A DNA stretch of 64,000 nt. It comes from Candidatus Latescibacterota bacterium. Its GTDB lineage: Bacteria > Latescibacterota > UBA2968. A model generated the notes under the pieces. It was not told the origin of the DNA. It saw nothing but the letters and a program-made list of their open reading frames with translations, and did not search any database. The stretch's first letter is position 1. Every line of letters begins with the position of its first letter. Below are positions 2,344 to 64,000 of the stretch, in pieces. Location of the stretch: NCBI GenBank assembly GCA_965116885.1, contig OZ220741.1, positions 544,001 through 608,000 on the forward strand. The letters are read 5' to 3'. Position numbers and translations under genes: made by a program.

Positions 2344-3522
2344 ATGAGTGCAACTTACGAAACGCTCGTCGCACGGGCAGAGGCCAACACAACAGGGCTT
2401 TCTCCAGAACGCGCACAGGAGAAAATCCATACAAATGGCACATTGCTCATAGACGTGCGCGAGCGTGAAAACTATATCGAAGGATATATCCCGGGCGCAG
2501 AAAATGTGCCGCGTGGCTTTCTCGAACTCCGCATAGAAAGCATGGACAACGACCGCGACCGCGCAATCATTATCTATGGTGCTCAGGGCCAGGGCGCATT
2601 AGCCGCACAGGCGCTTCAAGACATGGGCTATTCCGATGTCGCGTATATCCAGGGCGACATCGATTCCTGGAAAAACGCCGGTCTCGACATCAACCAGGAC
2701 CGCGCGCTCGACAAAGCCGAAGTACAGCGCTACTCCCGTCACCTCCTCATCCCCGAAGTGGGAGAACGCGGACAGGGCAAACTCCTCGACGCCAAAGTCC
2801 TGCTCATCGGCGCAGGCGGATTGGGCAGCCCAACCGGACTTTATCTCGCCGCAACTGGCATTGGGACACTGGGAATTGTCGATGCCGACATCGTCGATGT
2901 CACCAACTTGCAACGCCAGATACTACACGGCACATCTGACCTGGGTCGTCTCAAAGCCATCTCGGCTTACGAAACCCTCAAAGAAATTAACCCCGGCTGC
3001 GATGTGGTGCCACACACCGACTATCTCACATCCGACAACATCATGGACATCCTCCCCGAATACGACATCATCGTCAACGGATGCGACAACTTCCCAACGC
3101 GCTATCTCGTCAACGATGCGTGTGTCTTCCTCAAAAAACCCATCGTGGATGGCAGCATCTTCCGCTTTGAAGGTCAGGTCACGGTGTACACGTGCGACGG
3201 TGAGGGGCCTTGCTACCGCTGCCTCTACCCAGCGCCACCGCCGGCAGACCTGGCACCATCGTGAGACGAAGCAGGCGTGCTGGGTGTTCTGCCCGGCACA
3301 GTTGGCCTCGTGCAGGCCACAGAAGTTGTCAAACTCATACTCGGTCAGGGGGATCCACTCATCGGTCGCTTACTGATGTACGACGCCCTGCAAATGAACT
3401 TCAACACATTCAAAATTCGCCGCGACAAAAATTGCCCTGTATGCGGCGACAACCCGACCATCACCGAACTCATGGACTATCAGGCATTCTGCGCCATGGA
3501 TCACAGCGACGCGGCGGATTAA
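2344..3522 (+). CDS. moeB: Rhodanese-MoeB/ThiF (MoeZ-like) sulfur-carrier adenylyltransferase, probable selenoprotein (TGA at 3262-3264, codon 307); 392 aa if read through
   Basis: ORFs 2344..3264 and 3277..3522 are in the same frame and join as CYRC...APS*DEAGVLG...CPVC, matching the MoeB PSC.EAGVLG motif. RYSRH and GAGGLG are present. A SECIS-like hairpin follows, and selC/selD are in the window. Confidence 0.88.
3277..3299 (+). promoter_or_regulatory. Candidate bacterial SECIS element
   Basis: GTGCTGGGT-GTTCT-GCCCGGCAC: 9-bp stem (two G-U pairs) with a 5-nt loop starting with G, 21 nt after the TGA. Confidence 0.7.
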
Positions 3523-3542: not shown

Positions 3543-3582
3543 AAAGGGGTGAAACCACCAATCGGTTTCACCCCTTTTGTTT
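3543..3582 (+). terminator. Rho-independent terminator (possibly bidirectional)
   Basis: AAAGGGGTGAAACC-accaatc-GGTTTCACCCCTTTT between convergent genes. Confidence 0.8.
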
Positions 3583-3624
3583 GACCTACCCCCCTAGCCC
3601 CCCTTCCTGCGAGGAAGGGGGGAA
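3583..3624 (+). repeat. Palindromic intergenic repeat, family 2
   Basis: GACCTACCCCCCTAGCCCCCTTCCTGCGAGGAAGGGGGGA resembles 20770-20810. Confidence 0.65.
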
Positions 3625-3661
3625 CCAGGTCTCCCCCTCGCCTTTCATCTGTGAAAAACAC

Positions 3662-4759
3662 TCAAATTACTCGCGTTTTTTTCTGCGTCATCTGCGGATG
3701 ATAATGCCCCCTATCTCTATCCTCCACAATACGATCATCTACAGGCACCTCGAAGCGATCCGCCCATTCGCCAATTTGCTGATTAATCGTATCGGGTATC
3801 TCAATGCCGTGTTTGAGGCGGTGTCTGCGGTTGCGGTACTCAAAATCCCCCGGGACCAGAACTTCATCTACCCCATCGGCGGGTTCGGTCGTCTTCATCG
3901 CATCTAAAAATGCGCGAATATCCTGTTGATAACTATCCAGGTCTGTAAATGTACTGATATCAATAACCTGCATAAACGCGCCCCCAGAACGCCGGCCCTC
4001 CCTTTGGGCTCCTGAAAGCAGCCCCATCAAACAGATCATCAGCGAAAGCGCGTAGCCCTTGTGCTCTCCAAAAGTACGCAAAAATCCACCATCGTAAAAA
4101 TCGAGAGGATTGGTTGACGGCTTGTTATGCTTATCCACAATAAAAGTATCGGGAATCGACGCATTCTTGCTTCGCGCGACCTGGAGCTTGCCCTCGGCGA
4201 CCATGGCAGTGGCAAAATCGATTACAAAAGGCGCCTCATCGCCAGTGGGAACACCCACCGCAATGGGATTGGTACCCAGACTTCCCTTCTTCCCTCCAAA
4301 AGGCAGAACTTTCATCGTATTGGGCGAACCCCCACCAACCATGCAAATACCGATAAAACCCCCGCGCGCGGCAATCTCAACATATTCTCCCAGACGTCCA
4401 ATATGTGCAACCCGCGTGAATGAAACCGAACAAATTTCAGAAGTTCGCGCTTTTTCCATCGCCTGATGGACCGCGCGATAAGCCGTAAGATGCCCCAGCC
4501 CCCCGTTGCCGTCCAGAACCAGTGTAGTAGCCGATTCCCGCGCCGTAGTCGGTTCAGCCGCCGGATTCATCCCCCCCTCGGAGATATTAGTGAGATACAG
4601 GGGGATGCGGAGAACACCGTGAGAATCGTGACCTGCGAGATTGGCATTCACCAGAATCTTCGCCACAATACCTGCAATATCAGGTGTCGCACCAGAAGCT
4701 TCAAACAAACGTCTCGTAAGCGCGTGAAGATGTGCGGGTTGATACGTGTGCATTTGCAT
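3662..4759 (-). CDS. Ldh_2 family (malate/L-lactate/ureidoglycolate-type) oxidoreductase
   Basis: GHDSHG, HIGRLGEY, GTNPIA, DFAT, GEHKGYAL, VLVPGD. Start moved to the ATG at 4759, which has a GGAG RBS. Confidence 0.9.
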   Translation of the reverse strand: MQMHTYQPAHLHALTRRLFEASGATPDIAGIVAKILVNANLAGHDSHGVLRIPLYLTNISEGGMNPAAEPTTARESATTLVLDGNGGLGHLTAYRAVHQAMEKARTSEICSVSFTRVAHIGRLGEYVEIAARGGFIGICMVGGGSPNTMKVLPFGGKKGSLGTNPIAVGVPTGDEAPFVIDFATAMVAEGKLQVARSKNASIPDTFIVDKHNKPSTNPLDFYDGGFLRTFGEHKGYALSLMICLMGLLSGAQREGRRSGGAFMQVIDISTFTDLDSYQQDIRAFLDAMKTTEPADGVDEVLVPGDFEYRNRRHRLKHGIEIPDTINQQIGEWADRFEVPVDDRIVEDRDRGHYHPQMTQKKTRVI

Positions 4760-20769: not shown

Positions 20770-20853
20770 GACCTCTCCCCCCGGCCCCCTCTCCTGAAAG
20801 GAAAGGGGGAGTGTATAGCGAAGTGGCGCGAGTAACGAACCGGGGGGTAGATC
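20770..20853 (+). repeat. Palindromic intergenic repeat, family 2
   Basis: GACCTCTCCCCCCGGCCCCCTCTCCTGAAAGGAAAGGGGGA...GGGGGGTAGATC resembles 3583-3624. Confidence 0.65.
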
Positions 20854-20888
20854 TGTTCTCACTTCACACTTCTTACTTCACACTTCAC

Positions 20889-22250
20889 ATGCTCTTAACC
20901 ATCACAACCACATACAACCCCGCAACCGACCTGGGCTATCTGTTACACAAACATCCCGGACGCGCACAAACGTTTGACTTGTCTTTTGGTCGCGCACATG
21001 TATTTTATCCCGAAGCCACAGATGAAAAATGCACGGCTGCTCTATTGCTCGACCTCGACACCATTGGCCTCAAACGCCGTCGCCAAAACACCTTTGCACT
21101 TCGCGATTACGTCACCGACCGGCCCTATGTCGCCTCCTCGTTCACCAGCGTAGCCATCGCCCGCGTATATGGCAGCGCGCTCAAAGGCCAGTGCGCCGAC
21201 CGACCCGACCTCGTTACCCGGTCCATCCCCTTGCGCGCAGAAATCCACGTTCTCCCTTGTCGCGGTGGCGACCAGCTACTCAACGACCTGTTTCAGCCAT
21301 TGGGATATAAAGTCACAGCCAAACCGCACCGTCTCGACGAAAAATTCTCAGAATGGGGGTACAGCCCGTATTACACCGTCGCACTCGAAGCAAACATCCC
21401 ACTAAAAAACCTGCTCACCCATCTCTACGTCCTTATCCCCGTACTCGACGACGACAAACACTACTTCGTCAGCCAGTCAGAAATCGACACCCTGATGCGC
21501 CGCGGCGAAGGCTGGTTATCAGACCACCCCAAACGCGACCTCATCATAGACCGATACCTCAGACACCAGCGCATCCTCACCCAGGAAGCCTATCGCCTTA
21601 TGGATGAACAGCCCTTAGAGCGCAACATCAAAGACAACGAACTCGTCGTCGAAAACAACCTCAGGCTGAACCAGCAACGGCACAATGCCGTACTCAAAGA
21701 ACTCGAAATCAGCGGCGCACAACGCGTACTCGACCTCGGCTGCGGTGAAGGTCACTTCACACAAGTCTTGTCAGAACACCCCCAATTTACCAAAATCCTC
21801 GGCCTGGAAGTTTCACACTATGCCTTGAGCCGCGCTCATAAACGCCTTGAGCAACCCATACAGCGCAACCGCGTAGAACTCATTCACGGATCGCTATTCT
21901 ACCGCGACACGCGCCTCGATGGCTATGACGCCGCAGTACTCCTGGAAGTTATCGAACACCTCGACCCATCGCGATTGCCCGTCTTCGAACGCGTCATATT
22001 TGAATATGCCCAACCCAACACCGTCATCATCACCACCCCAAATGCCGACTTCAACGTGCGCTGGGAATCTCTCCCTGCCGGACAATTTCGCCACCCCGAC
22101 CACCGGTTCGAATGGTCGCGCAAACAATTTCAACACTGGACACAAAGCGTCGAAAAAAAATTCAACTACAGTACAACAATCAAACCCATCGGTCCCGTAG
22201 ATCCCAAAGCAGGCCCGCCAACGCAAATGGCCGTATTCAATAAAAAATAA
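20889..22250 (+). CDS. hen1: 3' terminal RNA ribose 2'-O-methyltransferase Hen1
   Basis: MLLTITTT..PATDLGYLLHKHP, YVTDRPYVASS, VLDLGCGEG, EVIEHL, FRHPDHRFEW; directly upstream of pnkp. Confidence 0.95.
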   Translation: MLLTITTTYNPATDLGYLLHKHPGRAQTFDLSFGRAHVFYPEATDEKCTAALLLDLDTIGLKRRRQNTFALRDYVTDRPYVASSFTSVAIARVYGSALKGQCADRPDLVTRSIPLRAEIHVLPCRGGDQLLNDLFQPLGYKVTAKPHRLDEKFSEWGYSPYYTVALEANIPLKNLLTHLYVLIPVLDDDKHYFVSQSEIDTLMRRGEGWLSDHPKRDLIIDRYLRHQRILTQEAYRLMDEQPLERNIKDNELVVENNLRLNQQRHNAVLKELEISGAQRVLDLGCGEGHFTQVLSEHPQFTKILGLEVSHYALSRAHKRLEQPIQRNRVELIHGSLFYRDTRLDGYDAAVLLEVIEHLDPSRLPVFERVIFEYAQPNTVIITTPNADFNVRWESLPAGQFRHPDHRFEWSRKQFQHWTQSVEKKFNYSTTIKPIGPVDPKAGPPTQMAVFNKK

Positions 22251-22253
22251 ACC

Positions 22254-24785
22254 ATGAACATCACAATCCCCGAAATCGCACTCGTCGTCCTTATCGGCGT
22301 ATCTGGCTCTGGCAAATCCACATTTGCCAAAACCCACTTCAAACCGACCGAAGTCCTCTCCTCCGACTATTTCCGCGGACTCATAAGCGACGACGAAACC
22401 GACCAGACCATCACAAAAGAGGCATTTGAAACCCTCCACTACGTGGCCGCCAAACGCCTCGCCAATTACAAACTCACCGTTATCGACGCCACCAGCGTAC
22501 AGGAAAGCGCCCGCAAACCCCTCGTCGCACTGGCCAAACAACATCACGTCTTCCCCATCGCCATCGTCCTCGACATGCCCGAAGACCTCTGCCGCGAGCG
22601 CAACAAACACCGCCCAGACCGCAACTTTGCACATCGCGTCATCGCGCAACAACGCCATCAACTCCGCCGCTCGTTCAAACGCCTCAAACGCGAAGGATTT
22701 CGCCGCATCTACACCCTGCGCTCGGAAAACGAGGTCCAGCGCGCGTGCATCACACGCGAAAAAGTTTGGCCCAACCGCCGCGACGACCACGGGCCCTTTG
22801 ACATCATTGGCGATGTACACGGCTGTTACGACGAACTCCTCGCGCTACTCGACAAACTCGGCTACGACATTCAGCCCAACCACATAACACCACCGCCAGG
22901 GCGCAAAGCCATCTTCCTCGGCGATCTCGTAGATCGCGGTCCCAAAACACCCCAGGTACTCGACCTCGTCATGCAAATGGTCAATTCCGGCGCCGCCCTC
23001 TGCATCCCCGGCAATCACGACACGCGCCTCGTTCGCGCGCTACAGGGCAAAAAGGTCAGACCCACTTATGGTCTTTCCGAAACCCTCGAACAACTCGAAC
23101 TATATCCCACTGAAGACCACAAACGCTATGCAAAATTCCTCGACAACCTCGTCAGCCACTACATACTCGACGACGGCAACCTCATCGTTGCACACGCCGG
23201 AATGAAAGAAGAACTGGCCGGACGCACCTCGGGCACCGTACGCGCCTTCGCACTATACGGCGAAACCACGGGCGAAACCGACGAATATGGCCTGCCCGTC
23301 CGCATCAACTGGGCAGCGCAATACCGCGGCAAAGCCACCGTCGTCTATGGACATACCCCCGTATCCCATCCCGAATGGCTCAACAACACCATCAACATCG
23401 ACACGGGCTGCACCTATGGCGGCGCACTCACTGCCCTGCGCTATCCCGAAAAAGAATGCGTCTCCGTACCCGCGCTCAAAACATATAGCAAACCCGCGCG
23501 CCCTCTTACCTCTAAGACCTCCCGCTCTGCACAGCAAACACACGACGACATGCTCGACATCGACGACGTCAACGGCAAACGCGCTGTAGATACCTTTCTC
23601 ATCCCGCGCATCACCATCCGCGAAGAACACGCCATTGCCGCACTCGAAATCATGAGCCGCTACGCCATCGATCCCAAATGGCTGATCTACCTGCCGCCGA
23701 CCATGTCCCCATCAAAACCCAGTCCGCGTCCCAATATCCTCGAACACCCCGACGAAGCCTATGCCTACTATCGGGAAAACGACATCACCAGGGTCATAGC
23801 CGAAGAAAAACACATGGGATCCCGCGCCATTGTCATCCTGTGCAAAAATGACGATATTGCCCGCACGCGTTTTGGCCTATCCGAACCCGCACCCGGCGCG
23901 TGTTATACCCGAACGGGCCGTTCCTTCTTTGACGACACACGCCTCGAAATCGCATTCCTTAAACGCCTCCAAAACGCCGTCTCCAAAGCCGACCTCTGGA
24001 AAAGCCTCAACACCACCTGGATAGCCCTCGACTGCGAACTCATGCCCTGGTCTGCCCGCGCACAACAACTGTTGCAAGAACAATACGCGGCTGTCGGCGC
24101 ATCTGCCCGCGCATCTCTAAACGCCACCATCGAGGCCCTCAACGCCAACAGCAACATCGACGTCGCCGATTGGCTCGCCAAATACAAAGATCGCTCACAG
24201 CGCATCGACCGCTATATCCACGCGTACCGCGCCTACTGCTGGCCCGTTCACAATCTCACAGACCTCAAACTCGCGCCCTTTCACATCCTCGCCACAGAAG
24301 GAAGCGTTCATCACAATCAGCCCCACACCTATCACATGGAAACCCTCTCAAAACTGTGCACGGCCGATCCCGAACTCTTCCATACCACATCATATCGCAT
24401 CGTCGATCTCAACGACGCGCAAAGTTGTGCCAACACCACTGCCTGGTGGAAAGAAAAAACAGCAGAGGGAAGCGAAGGCATGGTCGTCAAACCCCTGAAT
24501 TTCATCGCGCGGAACAAAAAAGACAGGCTGATTCAGCCCGCCATCAAATGCCGAGGCCGCGAATACCTCCGCATCATCTACGGTCCCGAATACACCACCC
24601 CCGAAAATCTCGAAAAATTGCGCTGGCGCAATGTCAAAACCAAGCAATCCCTCGCCCTGCGCGAATTTGCCCTGGGCCTCGAAGCCCTCAGCCGCTTCGT
24701 TCAAAACGAGCCCCTGCGCCGCATCCACGAATGCGTCTTCGGCGTTCTCGCGCTCGAAACAGAACCCGTGGATCCGCGGCTGTAG
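22254..24785 (+). CDS. pnkp: Polynucleotide kinase-phosphatase-ligase Pnkp
   Basis: P-loop GVSGSGKST; phosphoesterase GDVHG/GDLVDRG/GNHD; ligase EEKHMGSR, EGMVVKP, KCRGREYLRIIYG; ends PVDPRL. Confidence 0.95.
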   Translation: MNITIPEIALVVLIGVSGSGKSTFAKTHFKPTEVLSSDYFRGLISDDETDQTITKEAFETLHYVAAKRLANYKLTVIDATSVQESARKPLVALAKQHHVFPIAIVLDMPEDLCRERNKHRPDRNFAHRVIAQQRHQLRRSFKRLKREGFRRIYTLRSENEVQRACITREKVWPNRRDDHGPFDIIGDVHGCYDELLALLDKLGYDIQPNHITPPPGRKAIFLGDLVDRGPKTPQVLDLVMQMVNSGAALCIPGNHDTRLVRALQGKKVRPTYGLSETLEQLELYPTEDHKRYAKFLDNLVSHYILDDGNLIVAHAGMKEELAGRTSGTVRAFALYGETTGETDEYGLPVRINWAAQYRGKATVVYGHTPVSHPEWLNNTINIDTGCTYGGALTALRYPEKECVSVPALKTYSKPARPLTSKTSRSAQQTHDDMLDIDDVNGKRAVDTFLIPRITIREEHAIAALEIMSRYAIDPKWLIYLPPTMSPSKPSPRPNILEHPDEAYAYYRENDITRVIAEEKHMGSRAIVILCKNDDIARTRFGLSEPAPGACYTRTGRSFFDDTRLEIAFLKRLQNAVSKADLWKSLNTTWIALDCELMPWSARAQQLLQEQYAAVGASARASLNATIEALNANSNIDVADWLAKYKDRSQRIDRYIHAYRAYCWPVHNLTDLKLAPFHILATEGSVHHNQPHTYHMETLSKLCTADPELFHTTSYRIVDLNDAQSCANTTAWWKEKTAEGSEGMVVKPLNFIARNKKDRLIQPAIKCRGREYLRIIYGPEYTTPENLEKLRWRNVKTKQSLALREFALGLEALSRFVQNEPLRRIHECVFGVLALETEPVDPRL

Positions 24786-28212: not shown

Positions 28213-28275
28213 AAAAAAAGACAGTCAAGGGGAGACCTTGCTCCCGCGGTCCAATAGGTCAGACCTCTCGACTGT
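28213..28275 (-). ncRNA. Candidate three-way-junction small RNA
   Basis: Minus strand: ACAGTCGAG/CTTGACTGT, GGTCTGA/TTGGACC and GGGAG/CTCCC stems, then a T7 run; TAAAAT lies 7 nt upstream. Confidence 0.45.
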
Positions 28276-34739: not shown

Positions 34740-35624
34740 ATGGTCCCCCTCATCAGCAGCCTCGTCTATGGCCCACTCGGCGCGTGTCAATTGCCCCGCA
34801 CATGGTGGAAAGTCCTCACGCGCAACGCCGGTATTTTAGACGACGAATATCCCGACATGACAGATAATGGCCTCGACCCCCGCGTACTGCGCGCATTAAA
34901 CCTGGATATCGACACCACATTGGCCTACTTGCGCGAAAACATGCCCTCATACCTCGAATTTGAAGCGTGGATACTCGAACAAAGAGGCGACGACTTCTGG
35001 GGCTTTGAACAGCAAGACGCCATCGTCCGATGGAACACGTTTATTCGCGCACGGCGACACCGCGGAGAAAAAATTGAAGAAACGTACACAGACACGGGCC
35101 TGCCGCGAGATGCGGGCATTGATTCTGCAACCGTACTCAACAGCCTTCAGGACTGGCAGTTATTTTACAAGCGCGACCTGCCCAAACTCAGCGGAAACAT
35201 CGTCCCCCTCATCGCCACAATCGACTTCGGTCCCCTCGGCGTGCGCCAGTTGCCCCGCACATGGTACAAAATCCTCCTCCGCGCAAAAGGACTGCTCCAC
35301 CCCGACTATCCCGACATGACGGATAGTGGCCTGGACCCCCGCGTACTGCACGCATTAAATCTGGACATCGACGCCACATTAAACTACATCCGCACAAACC
35401 TCCCGTCCTATCTCGAATTTGAAGGCTGGGTGCTCGAACAGTGCGGCGGTCAAATTCCCGTACAAGCCGTTGACGAATGGAATGACTACCTGTGCAATCG
35501 CATCCACAACGACGCCAAACGCGCAGAAATCCGCGCAACCGTGGGATGTGGCGACATATCCTCAGCCGTCGTACTCAACCACATCGAAGACTGGCATCTG
35601 GCACATCAGTGGCTCTCAATGTGA
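34740..35624 (+). CDS. Hypothetical protein made of two tandem homologous domains (DUF5069-like)
   Basis: GPLG..QLPRTW.K...YPDMTD.GLDPRVL.ALNLDID...PSYLEFE.W occurs twice. Confidence 0.7.
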   Translation: MVPLISSLVYGPLGACQLPRTWWKVLTRNAGILDDEYPDMTDNGLDPRVLRALNLDIDTTLAYLRENMPSYLEFEAWILEQRGDDFWGFEQQDAIVRWNTFIRARRHRGEKIEETYTDTGLPRDAGIDSATVLNSLQDWQLFYKRDLPKLSGNIVPLIATIDFGPLGVRQLPRTWYKILLRAKGLLHPDYPDMTDSGLDPRVLHALNLDIDATLNYIRTNLPSYLEFEGWVLEQCGGQIPVQAVDEWNDYLCNRIHNDAKRAEIRATVGCGDISSAVVLNHIEDWHLAHQWLSM

Positions 35625-56537: not shown

Positions 56538-58505
56538 ATGCTGAGATTTGCTGAAGAAATACTACTGCTCCTCCACGACGAAGACCGGGGCGATTTCGCA
56601 CCCGGTCTTGCACAGCACGCGTTGAATATCGCTCTTGCCGGGGCCGTATTGATGGATTTGGCCCTGGAAAACCGCATCGATACCGATCTCGAGCATCTCT
56701 TTTTGGCTGATGCCACGCCTCTTGAAGACGACCTGCTCGATCCCACCCTTGCCGACATCGCACGCGATACGGACACACGAGACACCAACTATTGGCTCGC
56801 ACAAACGACCAAACGGGGCGACGAAATCCGCGATAAAGCACTTACGCGTTTGGTCAACCGGGGCATATTGGAAGCTGAGTCCGAAGATATCTTTCTCCTC
56901 TCTCGCCTGGTGTCGCGCTCCCGCCGCTATCCAACCATTGATGGAAAAACATTAGAAGAAGTCCGGTTGCGCATTATGCGCGTACTGTTCACCGATGAAA
57001 TTCCGGACCCACGCGACATCGTCATTATCTGTCTGGCGGATGCCTGCGGCGTTTTCAAGAATATTTTATCCCAGTCAGAACTATCGGAGGTACAAGAACG
57101 GATCGAACTGATTCGCAAAATGGACCTGATCGGCCAATCGGTTACCAAAGCGATCCGCGAGCATGAGCCTCCTACCCCTGTCCCTACTCCACGCAAAGAG
57201 ATACCTCAGGCACCGGGGTTGCCGCTTATTGGCAACACCATCGGCATGACGCGCGATTTGGGCTCGCTTCTCGTCAAACAATACCGAAACTTAGGTCCGA
57301 TTTTTCGCATCAAGGCATTCAATCGCCGTTTCGTCGTCCTCGTAGGTCCCGAGGCGAATACCTTCGTAAAGCGAGGGGGTAAGTACCTGCGCACGCTTGA
57401 AAACTGGGTGGATTACAACAAAGCTGGGGGCGTCGGACGTAGCATAATCAGCATGGATGGTCCCGACCATATTCGCCTGCGCAAAGAACTGGCGGATGTG
57501 TACACCCACCGCCTCATTGAAGGTCGTGTGGGAGACGCTGTCCACGTTCTTCAACAAGATATCGCCGGATGGCCCCAGGACAAGCCGCTGCCGGGCTTAT
57601 ACACCTGGCAGCGCATCGTCTTAGATCAGATCGGTGTACTGGCTCTCAGCATGCCTGTACACGACTACTTAGACGACATTATGATTTATTTTCAAAGCAA
57701 GATGAAAACCTATGTCATGCGGCAGCAACCCAGGCTGATGTTATATCGACCACGCGTCCGGCGTGCCTTCAAGCGAGTGGAAGAACTGGCTCAGCGCATT
57801 CTGGCAGATCACGAACCAGAAAAACGCCGCAACAAGCCACCGGATGCCATTGACCATTTGCTGGAACTGCACCGCAGGGATCCGCAATTTCTTCCCGAGA
57901 CCGATTTAGACATGTTGGGACCTCTCTCGGCCGGTCTCGATACCGTGGCAAATATCTGTGCCTTCATGTTCTACGAATTATTGAAGCGACCGGATCTGCG
58001 CGAGCAGGTAATTGCTGAAGCAGACGCCCTCTTTGATCAGGGTATGCCTACCGTGAACGATCTGCGTCAACTCGACGTCCTGCACCGCACGACAATGGAA
58101 ATAATACGCCTCTATCCCCTTGCGCCAGTAATGTCATTGCGCACAGTAGCCAACTCATTTGAATTTGAGGGCTATAAGGTCCCCGCTGGCGAGACCCTTC
58201 TGATTGGATTCACAATACCGCACCGGATGCCGGAATATTTCCCCAATCCGGAGCGCTTCGATATCGACCGCTACACCGCAGAACGCGCTGAGCACCGCCA
58301 GCACGGGGTCTATGTCCCCTTCGGCTTAGGAGCGCATCGGTGCCCAGGCAACAGGCTCGCCGAGGTGCTCATTGCGCTCAACATGGCGACCGTCCTCCGC
58401 GAAGCCGAATTGGTTCTCCATCCGCCCGATTGCGAATTGAAGACCAAACGAAGCTATGCCCTCCTACCCAACTACAAGTTCCGCCTGGTGCGTCGGCACC
58501 GATAG
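56538..58505 (+). CDS. GPP34 (GOLPH3/Vps74-like) domain fused to cytochrome P450
   Basis: N-terminal AEEILLLL, LAGAVLMDLALENRI, LVNRGIL, RRYP; P450 motifs AGLDT, EIIR, PERF, FGLGAHRCPG. Confidence 0.85.
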   Translation: MLRFAEEILLLLHDEDRGDFAPGLAQHALNIALAGAVLMDLALENRIDTDLEHLFLADATPLEDDLLDPTLADIARDTDTRDTNYWLAQTTKRGDEIRDKALTRLVNRGILEAESEDIFLLSRLVSRSRRYPTIDGKTLEEVRLRIMRVLFTDEIPDPRDIVIICLADACGVFKNILSQSELSEVQERIELIRKMDLIGQSVTKAIREHEPPTPVPTPRKEIPQAPGLPLIGNTIGMTRDLGSLLVKQYRNLGPIFRIKAFNRRFVVLVGPEANTFVKRGGKYLRTLENWVDYNKAGGVGRSIISMDGPDHIRLRKELADVYTHRLIEGRVGDAVHVLQQDIAGWPQDKPLPGLYTWQRIVLDQIGVLALSMPVHDYLDDIMIYFQSKMKTYVMRQQPRLMLYRPRVRRAFKRVEELAQRILADHEPEKRRNKPPDAIDHLLELHRRDPQFLPETDLDMLGPLSAGLDTVANICAFMFYELLKRPDLREQVIAEADALFDQGMPTVNDLRQLDVLHRTTMEIIRLYPLAPVMSLRTVANSFEFEGYKVPAGETLLIGFTIPHRMPEYFPNPERFDIDRYTAERAEHRQHGVYVPFGLGAHRCPGNRLAEVLIALNMATVLREAELVLHPPDCELKTKRSYALLPNYKFRLVRRHR

Positions 58506-58522
58506 CGAAATGGAGTGTCAAA

Positions 58523-59641
58523 ATGCCCACTAAGAAGCCACGCGCTCACCCAAATACGACCGCACCGTTGCGCGTTTGGGCGAAGCTACTCTGGGGCCAG
58601 GACGGGGTGAGGGTTGCGCCCCAGCACCGGGGACGAGTAAGGCGAATTCTCCTTGGCTCGGCCCTGATGGTACCGCTACGCTTGATCGAAAAGATGCGCT
58701 ACGGGCGCGCCGTAGCTCGGACGAAAATTGCGCATCCACCGATCTTTATCATCGGCCATGCCCGCTCGGGCACGACGCACTTGCACTATCTCCTGACGCG
58801 CGATCCGCAGTTCGCAATCGTCTCGTTGTTCCAATCCATCGCCCCGACATTCTTTCTGATCGGCCGTGGTTGGATCAAGCGTTTCATGGCCAAACAGCTC
58901 AAGCCAAAACGTCCGCAGGATGATGTCGAACTGGCGATGGACCTGCCGAATGAGGAGGAATTCGCGATTGCCAATTCCTCTGAGCTATCCAACGTTCACT
59001 TCCTTACATTCCCATCCAGGACGACGGAATACTTTGAAAAATATATCTTCATGAGGGGGCTGACTGAGCGGCAACAGGCGCGCTGGGATGCCGTCATCAC
59101 GGACATCATTAAAAAAGCCACCCTTGCGGGCGGTGGAAAACAGTTGGTACTCAAAAGCCCCTCCAACACCGGCCGAATTCCCCACCTCCTGCGCCTTTTC
59201 CCCAATGCCAGGTTCATTCATATCGCAAGAAATCCAGGCGATGTCTATTACTCGACAAACCATACATTAAGAAAGATGTTTGAGTTGTTCCTGCTGGAGG
59301 AGCATCCGGGCGATTTTTCGGATTTCGTCATCACCGAGTACAAGGCTCTAATGGAACAATACCTGAAAGACAGAGCTTTGATCCCAGAAGGCAATCTGGC
59401 GGAAGTGAAGTACGAGGACCTCGTAGCTGATCCACTGGGCGAAATGGAACGCATCTACGCGGCACTCGGATTGTCTGGTTGGGAAAGCGGAGGAAAGCAG
59501 GCTGTGGTCGAATACCTGAACACGCTTTCGGACTACCAAAAAAATACATTTGAACCGGACCCCGCCGCTATGGAGCGCGTCTCACGGGCCTGGCGATTTG
59601 CTTTCGAAGAATGGAATTATGAACTACCGGTGAAGCCATAG
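58523..59641 (+). CDS. Sulfotransferase family protein
   Basis: PIFIIGHARSGTTHL (PAPS loop), LKSP, FIHIARNP...S, YEDLVADP. Confidence 0.9.
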   Translation: MPTKKPRAHPNTTAPLRVWAKLLWGQDGVRVAPQHRGRVRRILLGSALMVPLRLIEKMRYGRAVARTKIAHPPIFIIGHARSGTTHLHYLLTRDPQFAIVSLFQSIAPTFFLIGRGWIKRFMAKQLKPKRPQDDVELAMDLPNEEEFAIANSSELSNVHFLTFPSRTTEYFEKYIFMRGLTERQQARWDAVITDIIKKATLAGGGKQLVLKSPSNTGRIPHLLRLFPNARFIHIARNPGDVYYSTNHTLRKMFELFLLEEHPGDFSDFVITEYKALMEQYLKDRALIPEGNLAEVKYEDLVADPLGEMERIYAALGLSGWESGGKQAVVEYLNTLSDYQKNTFEPDPAAMERVSRAWRFAFEEWNYELPVKP

Positions 59642-63501: not shown

Positions 63502-63599
63502 TGGCGGGAATGTGTGGGAATCGAACCCACCAAGCGTGGGGTTAGCACGCAACAACGGGTTTGAAGCCCGCGGGGGACACCAGTTCCCCATCCACTCCC
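63502..63599 (-). tRNA. selC: tRNA-Sec (anticodon TCA)
   Basis: 98 nt; GGGAGTG/CATTCCC-GCCA acceptor, long D stem with TGGT loop, CTTCAAA anticodon loop, long variable arm, GTGGG-TTCGATT-CCCAC; directly after selD. Confidence 0.95.
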
Positions 63600-63601
63600 A
63601 A

Positions 63602-64000
63602 TCACGCTCGTACCTCAATCTCACCGGGATATTCTGCAACCACCTCGCCAATATCTCGAGCCATCACACCGCGATCGTCCAACGACTCAAGAAAAGCATC
63701 AGCCACATCGGGCGCAAGTGCAATCAACAGACCGCCAGAAGTCTGCGGATCAAAAAACAAACGCCTCAAAGCCTCATCAACATCATCGGCAAATCGCACC
63801 GCATGCCCGCGCGCCGCCCGATTGCGCCGCAAACCCCCGCCCTCGCGCCCCTCTGCAATCTGCAAAGCCAGATCAAAACGCGGCACATCAGAAGCACGTA
63901 TGCGAATCCCAACGCCACTCGCCTGCGCCATCTCCAACCCATGCCCCAGCAACCCAAACCCGGTAATATCCGTACATCCACCCGCATTATATGCAACCAT
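63602..64000 (-). CDS. selD: Selenophosphate synthetase, C-terminal part (runs off window)
   Basis: TDITGFGLLGH..EMA and DPQTSGGLL. Confidence 0.95.
   Translation of the reverse strand: MVAYNAGGCTDITGFGLLGHGLEMAQASGVGIRIRASDVPRFDLALQIAEGREGGGLRRNRAARGHAVRFADDVDEALRRLFFDPQTSGGLLIALAPDVADAFLESLDDRGVMARDIGEVVAEYPGEIEVRA

Follow-up and report, generated by a model that had tools for sequence, protein, structure and literature searches.

Enzymes of the ThiF/MoeB family adenylate Gly-Gly carrier proteins and hold a pair of CxxC motifs whose zinc role is established for the family (PMC12596934). In Uba4 and mycobacterial MoeZR, a C-terminal rhodanese domain gives the persulfide in cis (PMC11662940, PMC3227635), and MoeZR serves both the Moco and the cysteine pathways (PMC3227635). 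Escherichia coli MoeB and ThiF carry no rhodanese fusion, keep a Cys in the crossover loop and work with one enzyme per carrier; their sulfur arrives in trans, with IscS as the donor for MoaD (PMC11662940, PMC3227635). Selenocysteine (Sec) forms of MoeB have been predicted from sequence, with 11 reported from the Sargasso Sea in 2005 (PMC1088965) and 19 from GOS in 2008 (PMC2398784). The family is filed under "predicted" in PMC9312934 and appears again in a 2026 review (PMC13188914), MBT7809913.1 being the representative named in these reviews, and no MoeB selenoprotein features in the dataset of PMC1976440 as given in its available text. The initial annotation of the present locus had correctly stated that such homologs were predicted computationally. 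Our literature searches, in which subscription journals are thinly covered, returned no experimental work on any Sec-MoeB, and nothing relevant on a Cys-less rhodanese-MoeB or on selenoproteins of Latescibacterota or sponge symbionts.

The locus described here lies in a Candidatus Latescibacterota genome, in a stretch of 64,000 nucleotides that was analysed as a whole (the window); most sequencing runs that contain the stretch are labelled sponge metagenome. It is a well-supported further member of the 2005 family, set apart by its Cys-less rhodanese domain and by a probable independent origin. All 11 Sargasso entries read PS-u-xVxGVLGVLPG and share with it the predicted Sec at the same crossover-loop position, the PF00899 domain and a hairpin 3' of the UGA (PMC1088965). 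Among the entries of the 2005 supplement, those that are long enough have a C-terminal rhodanese with its Cys, whereas the rhodanese of the Latescibacterota gene is N-terminal and Cys-less.

The gene occupies positions 2344–3522 (+ strand). Re-reading the frame bore out that two open reading frames join across a single TGA (3262–3264; codon 307), with no other internal stop before the terminal TAA (3520–3522). The TGA stands in the context CYRCLYPAPPPADLAPS-*-DEAGVLGVLPG...CPVC, and the product translated with read-through has 392 aa. With C substituted for U in scoring, this product matched the rhodanese-MoeB model PRK08762 over its full length (515.8 bits against a cut-off of 449), with the same order of N-terminal rhodanese and ThiF domains; it differs in having predicted Sec307 for Cys and Gly for the rhodanese Cys. 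A rhodanese-fold domain spans aa 20–112 (2401–2679, + strand; PF00581, E = 2e-17) and a ThiF/MoeB adenylation domain aa 130–366 (2731–3441, + strand; PF00899, COG0476, positions 1–238 of 238, E = 5.5e-81). The latter is complete only with read-through: the 85 codons 3' of the TGA match PF00899 positions 179–238 and also supply the second CxxC and a YQAFC motif. Across 43 aligned sequences the Gly-rich ATP loop, the conserved Arg, Asp and Lys and both zinc motifs are invariant, the first CxxC being C290/C293 (3211–3222, + strand) and the second C364/C367 (3433–3444, + strand, 3' of the TGA). A structure model (mean pLDDT 87.5, below 50 at residues 306–309) found its best fold matches in MoeB, ThiF and Uba4, with E. 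coli MoeB (1JW9) and ThiF (1ZUD) on top at a target TM-score of 0.95; the crossover loop is likewise unresolved in apo Uba4 (PMC7527816). With Uba4/MOCS3 (PDB 6YUB) the enzyme shares the adenylation domain, the position of the crossover-loop nucleophile Cys202 and a Tyr301/Cys305-like motif, in which Cys383 of YQAFC (3490–3492, + strand) is a candidate resolving cysteine. A terminator-like 15-bp inverted repeat lies 3' of the stop (3543–3577, called on the - strand), in a scan that as a whole returned no more sites than shuffled sequence.

In alignments, codon 307 falls on Cys202 of Chaetomium Uba4. It also falls on the crossover-loop Cys in MoeB and ThiF from E. coli, the correspondence that the initial annotation had proposed. 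Among 41 genomes, the match contained one TGA in 21, no internal stop in 19 and was a fragment in one. Where the codon itself was read (n = 30 loci), it was TGA in 21 and TGC in nine; additional loci gave TGC or TGT in nine and TGA in two. In a survey of the phylum, 136 of 168 genomes matched at 1e-70, and an internal TGA was present in 24, all from three genera (g1, g5 and g9); a 25th (G104) turned out to be the terminal stop. The TGA is found in every full-length copy of the genus (20/20) and is kept in all three genera, at identities as low as 75% and together with a conserved downstream part, while the relatives read at the site carry Cys. One sequence with Cys at the site (P0008; 90% identical) was set aside as an apparent chimera, since past CYRCL it changes to a different sequence. 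Two other runs, X3 (possibly DNA) and X10 (an RNA library, whose contig is no proof of transcription), have contigs that span the TGA, and among their differences, all of which were listed, none falls at the codon; in a contig of run X7 none of the differences seen (12 of 14) falls there. The TGA is not a sequencing slip, which the genus copies and the contigs of other runs exclude. Comparing the window gene with 20 other TGA genes, which are kin rather than independent samples, we counted 641 synonymous and 71 replacement differences over the 175 codons before the TGA, and 199 synonymous and 36 replacement differences over the 76 codons after it. These counts support purifying selection acting past the TGA, and they contradict the decaying downstream half that the initial annotation had named as a possible objection.

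A hairpin with a G-starting loop had been noted 21 nt downstream. Folding confirmed it at 3277–3299 (+ strand), with the loop GUUCU at 3286–3290; the 21 nt is the distance from UGA to loop, and the stem begins 12 nt 3' of the UGA. The stem has 9 bp including a U-G closing pair; the folding energy over 50 nt is -24.4 kcal/mol (z = -3.06), a stability reached by 2 of 200 shuffles. The bacterial SECIS consensus asks for a loop of 3–9 nt, a stem of 4–16 bp, a G in the first two loop positions, 16–37 nt from the UGA and at most -7.5 kcal/mol (PMC13188914); the hairpin has a 5-nt loop, 9 bp, G first, 21 nt and -16.4 kcal/mol over 39 nt. Under our re-implementation of this rule, 55 of 400 ordinary TGA ends also qualify, and 7 of 400 do so when the stem must reach at least 9 bp. 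Eight stem pairs are intact in all 21 TGA genes and in none of the nine Cys genes; in two later additions from g9 one pair is broken. Four stem third positions are invariant, against 20 of 90 fourfold sites elsewhere, and the loop third positions vary. The encoded peptide accounts for part of the hairpin's strength, with 22 of 200 synonymous recodings folding as strongly, and five of the nine Cys genes have one of their own strongest hairpins at the same place. Covariation was not above shuffles (198/500; 97% paired). The energy of the hairpin was therefore discarded as stand-alone proof of a SECIS, given that synonymous recodings often match it and covariation is absent. Given the alignment, the alternation of TGA and TGC in orthologs, the complete Sec machinery (see below), purifying selection past the TGA and the stem-specific codon conservation, we infer that the TGA almost certainly encodes selenocysteine at the reactive-Cys position of MoeB. 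SelB bound to the 3277–3299 hairpin would, with strong likelihood, deliver Sec-tRNA to UGA 307.

The rhodanese domain has Gly79 (GGT; 2578–2580, + strand) at the position of its catalytic Cys (YGAQG-QG against YCAGGNRS), and the Arg-Ser that follows this position is also changed, so the loop lacks the catalytic Cys that the six-residue loop of an active rhodanese holds. This loss, as read from the alignment, was missed in the initial annotation. All 29 orthologs aligned have YG, whether they are Sec or Cys forms; outgroup homologs keep the Cys. Among the matches listed, 51 of the 58 Sec-MoeB loci with an N-terminal extension keep YC, and the seven with YG all belong to the Latescibacterota lineage. 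A coupling of the Sec gain to the loss of the rhodanese Cys is not supported, given that Cys orthologs of the order are also YG and 51 of 58 N-terminal Sec-MoeBs keep YC. Since the catalytic Cys is absent, the fused rhodanese cannot relay a persulfide through that residue as Uba4 and MoeZR do (PMC11662940, PMC3227635).

Upstream of the gene, in an iscS-mrp-moeB run, lie an iscS-type cysteine desulfurase (268–1428, + strand; PRK14012, 580 bits against a cut-off of 548), which is a candidate sulfur donor, and an Mrp/ApbC P-loop ATPase of an Fe-S carrier family (1448–2257, + strand; PF10609, E = 7e-99). iscS adjoins moeB in relatives of the order and class and in three of the four more distant YC relatives checked; on this ground we rejected an entry of iscS into the operon upon loss of the rhodanese Cys. 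In the genome (98% complete, single contig), moeB is the only PF00899 match, alongside four ThiS-family (PF02597) carriers: one in moaD-moaE, one in thiO-thiS-thiG-thiE, one in an operon with a GGCSF carrier and one beside a xanthine-dehydrogenase-like gene. The GGCSF operon (L046:4562–8496, + strand) runs cysH-cysM-JAMM-carrier-Rrf2-cysK and resembles a carrier-dependent cysteine pathway without an E1 of its own; "CysO-like" is used here as a label by analogy with PMC3227635. The dimeric enzyme would adenylate the Gly-Gly ends of MoaD, ThiS, the CysO-like carrier after JAMM trimming and the fourth carrier in the molybdo-enzyme operon, as family knowledge and the motifs present suggest. Taken jointly, Sec decoding and carrier activation make this very probably an intact gene for a general sulfur-carrier-activating enzyme with a predicted Sec at the crossover-loop catalytic position. 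It would resemble MoeZR in serving more than one pathway (PMC3227635). It differs from E. coli MoeB and ThiF in being fused, in its predicted Sec and in having four candidate carriers.

In the mechanism we propose, Sec307 would capture the acyl-adenylate as a selenoester, as Cys202 of Uba4 does with sulfur, a step for which analogy gives slightly better than an even chance. Sulfur would be supplied in trans because the fused rhodanese lacks its Cys. The persulfide would come most plausibly from IscS, two genes upstream, and yield the carrier thiocarboxylate, a route resembling that of E. coli MoeB and ThiF (PMC11662940, PMC3227635). We consider IscS a reasonably likely donor. Two points count against this explanation: iscS and moeB were already linked before the rhodanese Cys disappeared, and further desulfurase-family and rhodanese genes are present in the genome. 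A model of the rhodanese domain in complex with the IscS dimer scored 0.00 and weighs neither way. Cys383, the equivalent of Uba4 Cys305, may resolve the mixed intermediate. A selenol is a better nucleophile than a thiol and resists over-oxidation. Sec307 might instead be inserted and form no selenoester, serving in a ThiF-like acyl-S-Se exchange from a donor persulfide, or mainly as a guard against oxidation or self-conjugation. This alternative, which touches the selenoester step only, we judge a serious possibility a little short of even. In ThiF, an acyl-disulfide adduct arises on Cys184 following ThiI (PMC12596934), and in Uba4 it is Cys202 that resolves reactive intermediates during oxidative stress (PMC7527816). 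Moreover, MoeB Cys187 and ThiF Cys184 were reported in 2026 to form no thioesters (PMC13139853), which weighs against selenoester capture on Sec307, and most further Sec candidates in the genome are thiol-redox proteins. Against it, a thioester is documented in Uba4 (PMC11662940, PMC7527816), and among solved structures the sequence is closest to Uba4, with the Tyr301/Cys305-like motif kept. The lineage offers a clean comparison: Sec and Cys orthologs are about 70% identical, share the same operon and both lack the rhodanese Cys, so that one could isolate what the crossover-loop residue does, its role not being the same in MoeB, ThiF and Uba4.

Sec-containing MoeB homologs had been described as rare, which did not hold: the DNA pattern PxUxxxGVLGVLPG hit at least 120 loci across many phyla in the genome collection, so they are not rare in uncultured phyla. 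All 120 pattern loci listed translate as MoeB crossover loops, and 113 of these lie outside the Latescibacterota lineage, mostly in Poribacteria, Actinomycetota, Verrucomicrobiota and Rokubacteria. Where flanks were available (n = 80 listed loci), 58 had an N-terminal extension, 16 a C-terminal one and six were stand-alone or partial. We built a quick LG+G4 tree from a chosen subset of 78 rows, using residues before the site and counting 12 "truncated" rows as Sec from their end position. The 17 Sec or truncated rows of the lineage formed one group (SH-aLRT 91) within a 38-row YG clade (100), apart from SAR324-type sequences, and a single clade for all Sec rows was rejected (p-AU = 1e-81; six long rows dropped). 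Among the matches listed, Sec-MoeB genes of other phyla mostly use a stem register shifted by one base relative to the Latescibacterota lineage, at levels above their own synonymous controls. As the Sec forms nest among Cys forms, a separate Cys-to-Sec gain in the lineage is the simplest reading and a likely one. The change would have followed the loss of the rhodanese Cys, and may have been eased by the hairpin into which GVLGVLPG codons readily fold.

Conversely, the Sec form could be ancestral or transferred from another Sec-MoeB lineage, with the Cys relatives as reversions, which we regard as improbable. Sec-MoeB is widespread, three of the nine Cys genes contain the full hairpin register of other phyla, and without a root, change counts cannot separate gain from loss. 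The Cys-bearing relatives all keep selA and tRNA-Sec, which fits this reading and disposes of the idea that they lack Sec machinery. It requires at least three reversions on supported branches; the rejection of a single Sec clade and the one-base offset of the lineage's register also stand against it, as does the description of Sec-to-Cys change as rare in bacteria (2026 review, PMC13188914). Returning to an independent gain, the nested tree position and the shifted register would make this a usable case of a bacterial SECIS arising within coding sequence. A broader scenario, which we consider rather unlikely in its entirety, is that the rhodanese was disabled first and Sec gained independently, Sec307 becoming the sulfur relay point for all four carriers, through a selenenyl-sulfide from IscS or a carrier selenoester. 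The site would then be a hot spot of repeated Cys-to-Sec gain, with GVLGVLPG codons already forming a hairpin at SECIS distance that different phyla perfected in two registers. If Sec307 is such a relay, Moco, thiamine and carrier-dependent cysteine synthesis would hang on one selenoprotein.

The window contains a whole tRNA-Sec with anticodon UCA (63506–63599, - strand; 70.1 bits, gathering 47), as had been claimed for it; of selD, claimed alongside, only the 3' part is inside (63602–64000, - strand), the gene running beyond the window with an in-frame TGA of its own just outside. Both are 60 kb from moeB, and sharing a window is therefore not linkage. A search for selA and selB elsewhere found them side by side outside the window, and all three genes scored above cut-off (selA 580.5, selB 384.7 and selD 369.1 bits). 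Among the 41 genomes, selA was present in 40 and a strong tRNA-Sec in 40, and both exceptions are TGA-bearing: our searches did not find selA in G012 (430 contigs) or a strong tRNA-Sec in G008. A variant code or leaky read-through that placed another residue, Trp or Cys, at the UGA would suit the Cys that orthologs carry at the site. We consider such a reading very unlikely: the tRNA-Sec is the only one of 48 tRNAs with a UCA anticodon, 1310 long frames (shadow frames included) end in TGA, and the in-frame TGA is confined to the catalytic Cys column in a genome with selABD.

Among the best 120 public predicted proteins, 32 end exactly one residue before the site, among them 27 of the 29 that are more than 75% identical, bearing out the expectation that annotation pipelines would misread the gene. 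A pseudogene, a real-stop truncation or an assembly error would account for the 306 aa at which standard translation halts and public gene calls end, and can be set aside as extremely improbable, given that the genome, which holds moaD-moaE, thiS-thiG and a CysO-like operon, has no second ThiF-family gene, that truncation would lose profile positions 179–238 and half of the zinc site, and that the TGA is fixed in three genera with the downstream part conserved and other runs giving the same codon. With predicted Sec307 restored, the annotation can be corrected; close public homologs are recorded as fragments of 305–307 aa, from which the genome's only sulfur-carrier activator would look broken.

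A coding-score screen of the genome gave ten further candidates with an in-frame TGA, the majority from named redox families; the screen is rough, and its final list missed both moeB and selD, hence it does not represent a full selenoproteome. Two candidates (G000 4830870 and 613716) were dropped as ordinary stops, and a third (G000 2623655) had no family match. One candidate is a tandem-rhodanese sulfurtransferase (L200:1459–2319, - strand; G000:C1 near 237400); its TGA stands at the catalytic position (PY-U-QGGYR), and the protein might donate sulfur in trans. A ResA-like WAxxUGC candidate (L193:6–770, - strand; G000:C1 near 609244) lies just past the window end, directly upstream of selD and tRNA-Sec. 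Further candidates (L052, L053, L054, L057, L194 and L195) include deiodinase-like, two peroxiredoxin-like, ArsC-like and Spx-like proteins, and in one a thioredoxin-like domain is combined with Ig-like repeats and an OS_HP2 domain in a single fusion.

A 92-aa DUF5069 protein outside the window (L055:291–569, - strand; G000:C1:1744693–1744968) has an in-frame TGA in YVYP-U-PAD and a 7-bp SECIS-like hairpin. One TGA occurs in 35 of its 37 matches among the 41 relatives, and the site codons read were TGA at four loci and TGC at two. DUF5069 is not named in the text of the 2026 review (PMC13188914) or in the literature searched, and it has no NCBIfam match; the protein is a candidate for an unlisted selenoprotein family. 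Within the window, another protein, of greater length, matches DUF5069 at a borderline level and has no internal stop (34740–35624, + strand).

Elsewhere in the window, we observed a Hen1-Pnkp RNA repair gene pair (20811–24785, + strand) and a fusion of a GPP34 domain with a cytochrome P450, after which comes a sulfotransferase (56538–59641, + strand). The intergenic stretches 201–240 and 3583–3700 draw many contigs in depth spikes and are probably dispersed small repeats. An Rfam DUF3800-VI RNA match (28222–28274, - strand; 40.2 bits, gathering 35) lies just 3' of a 116-aa open reading frame with a weak, below-cut-off match to XhlA.
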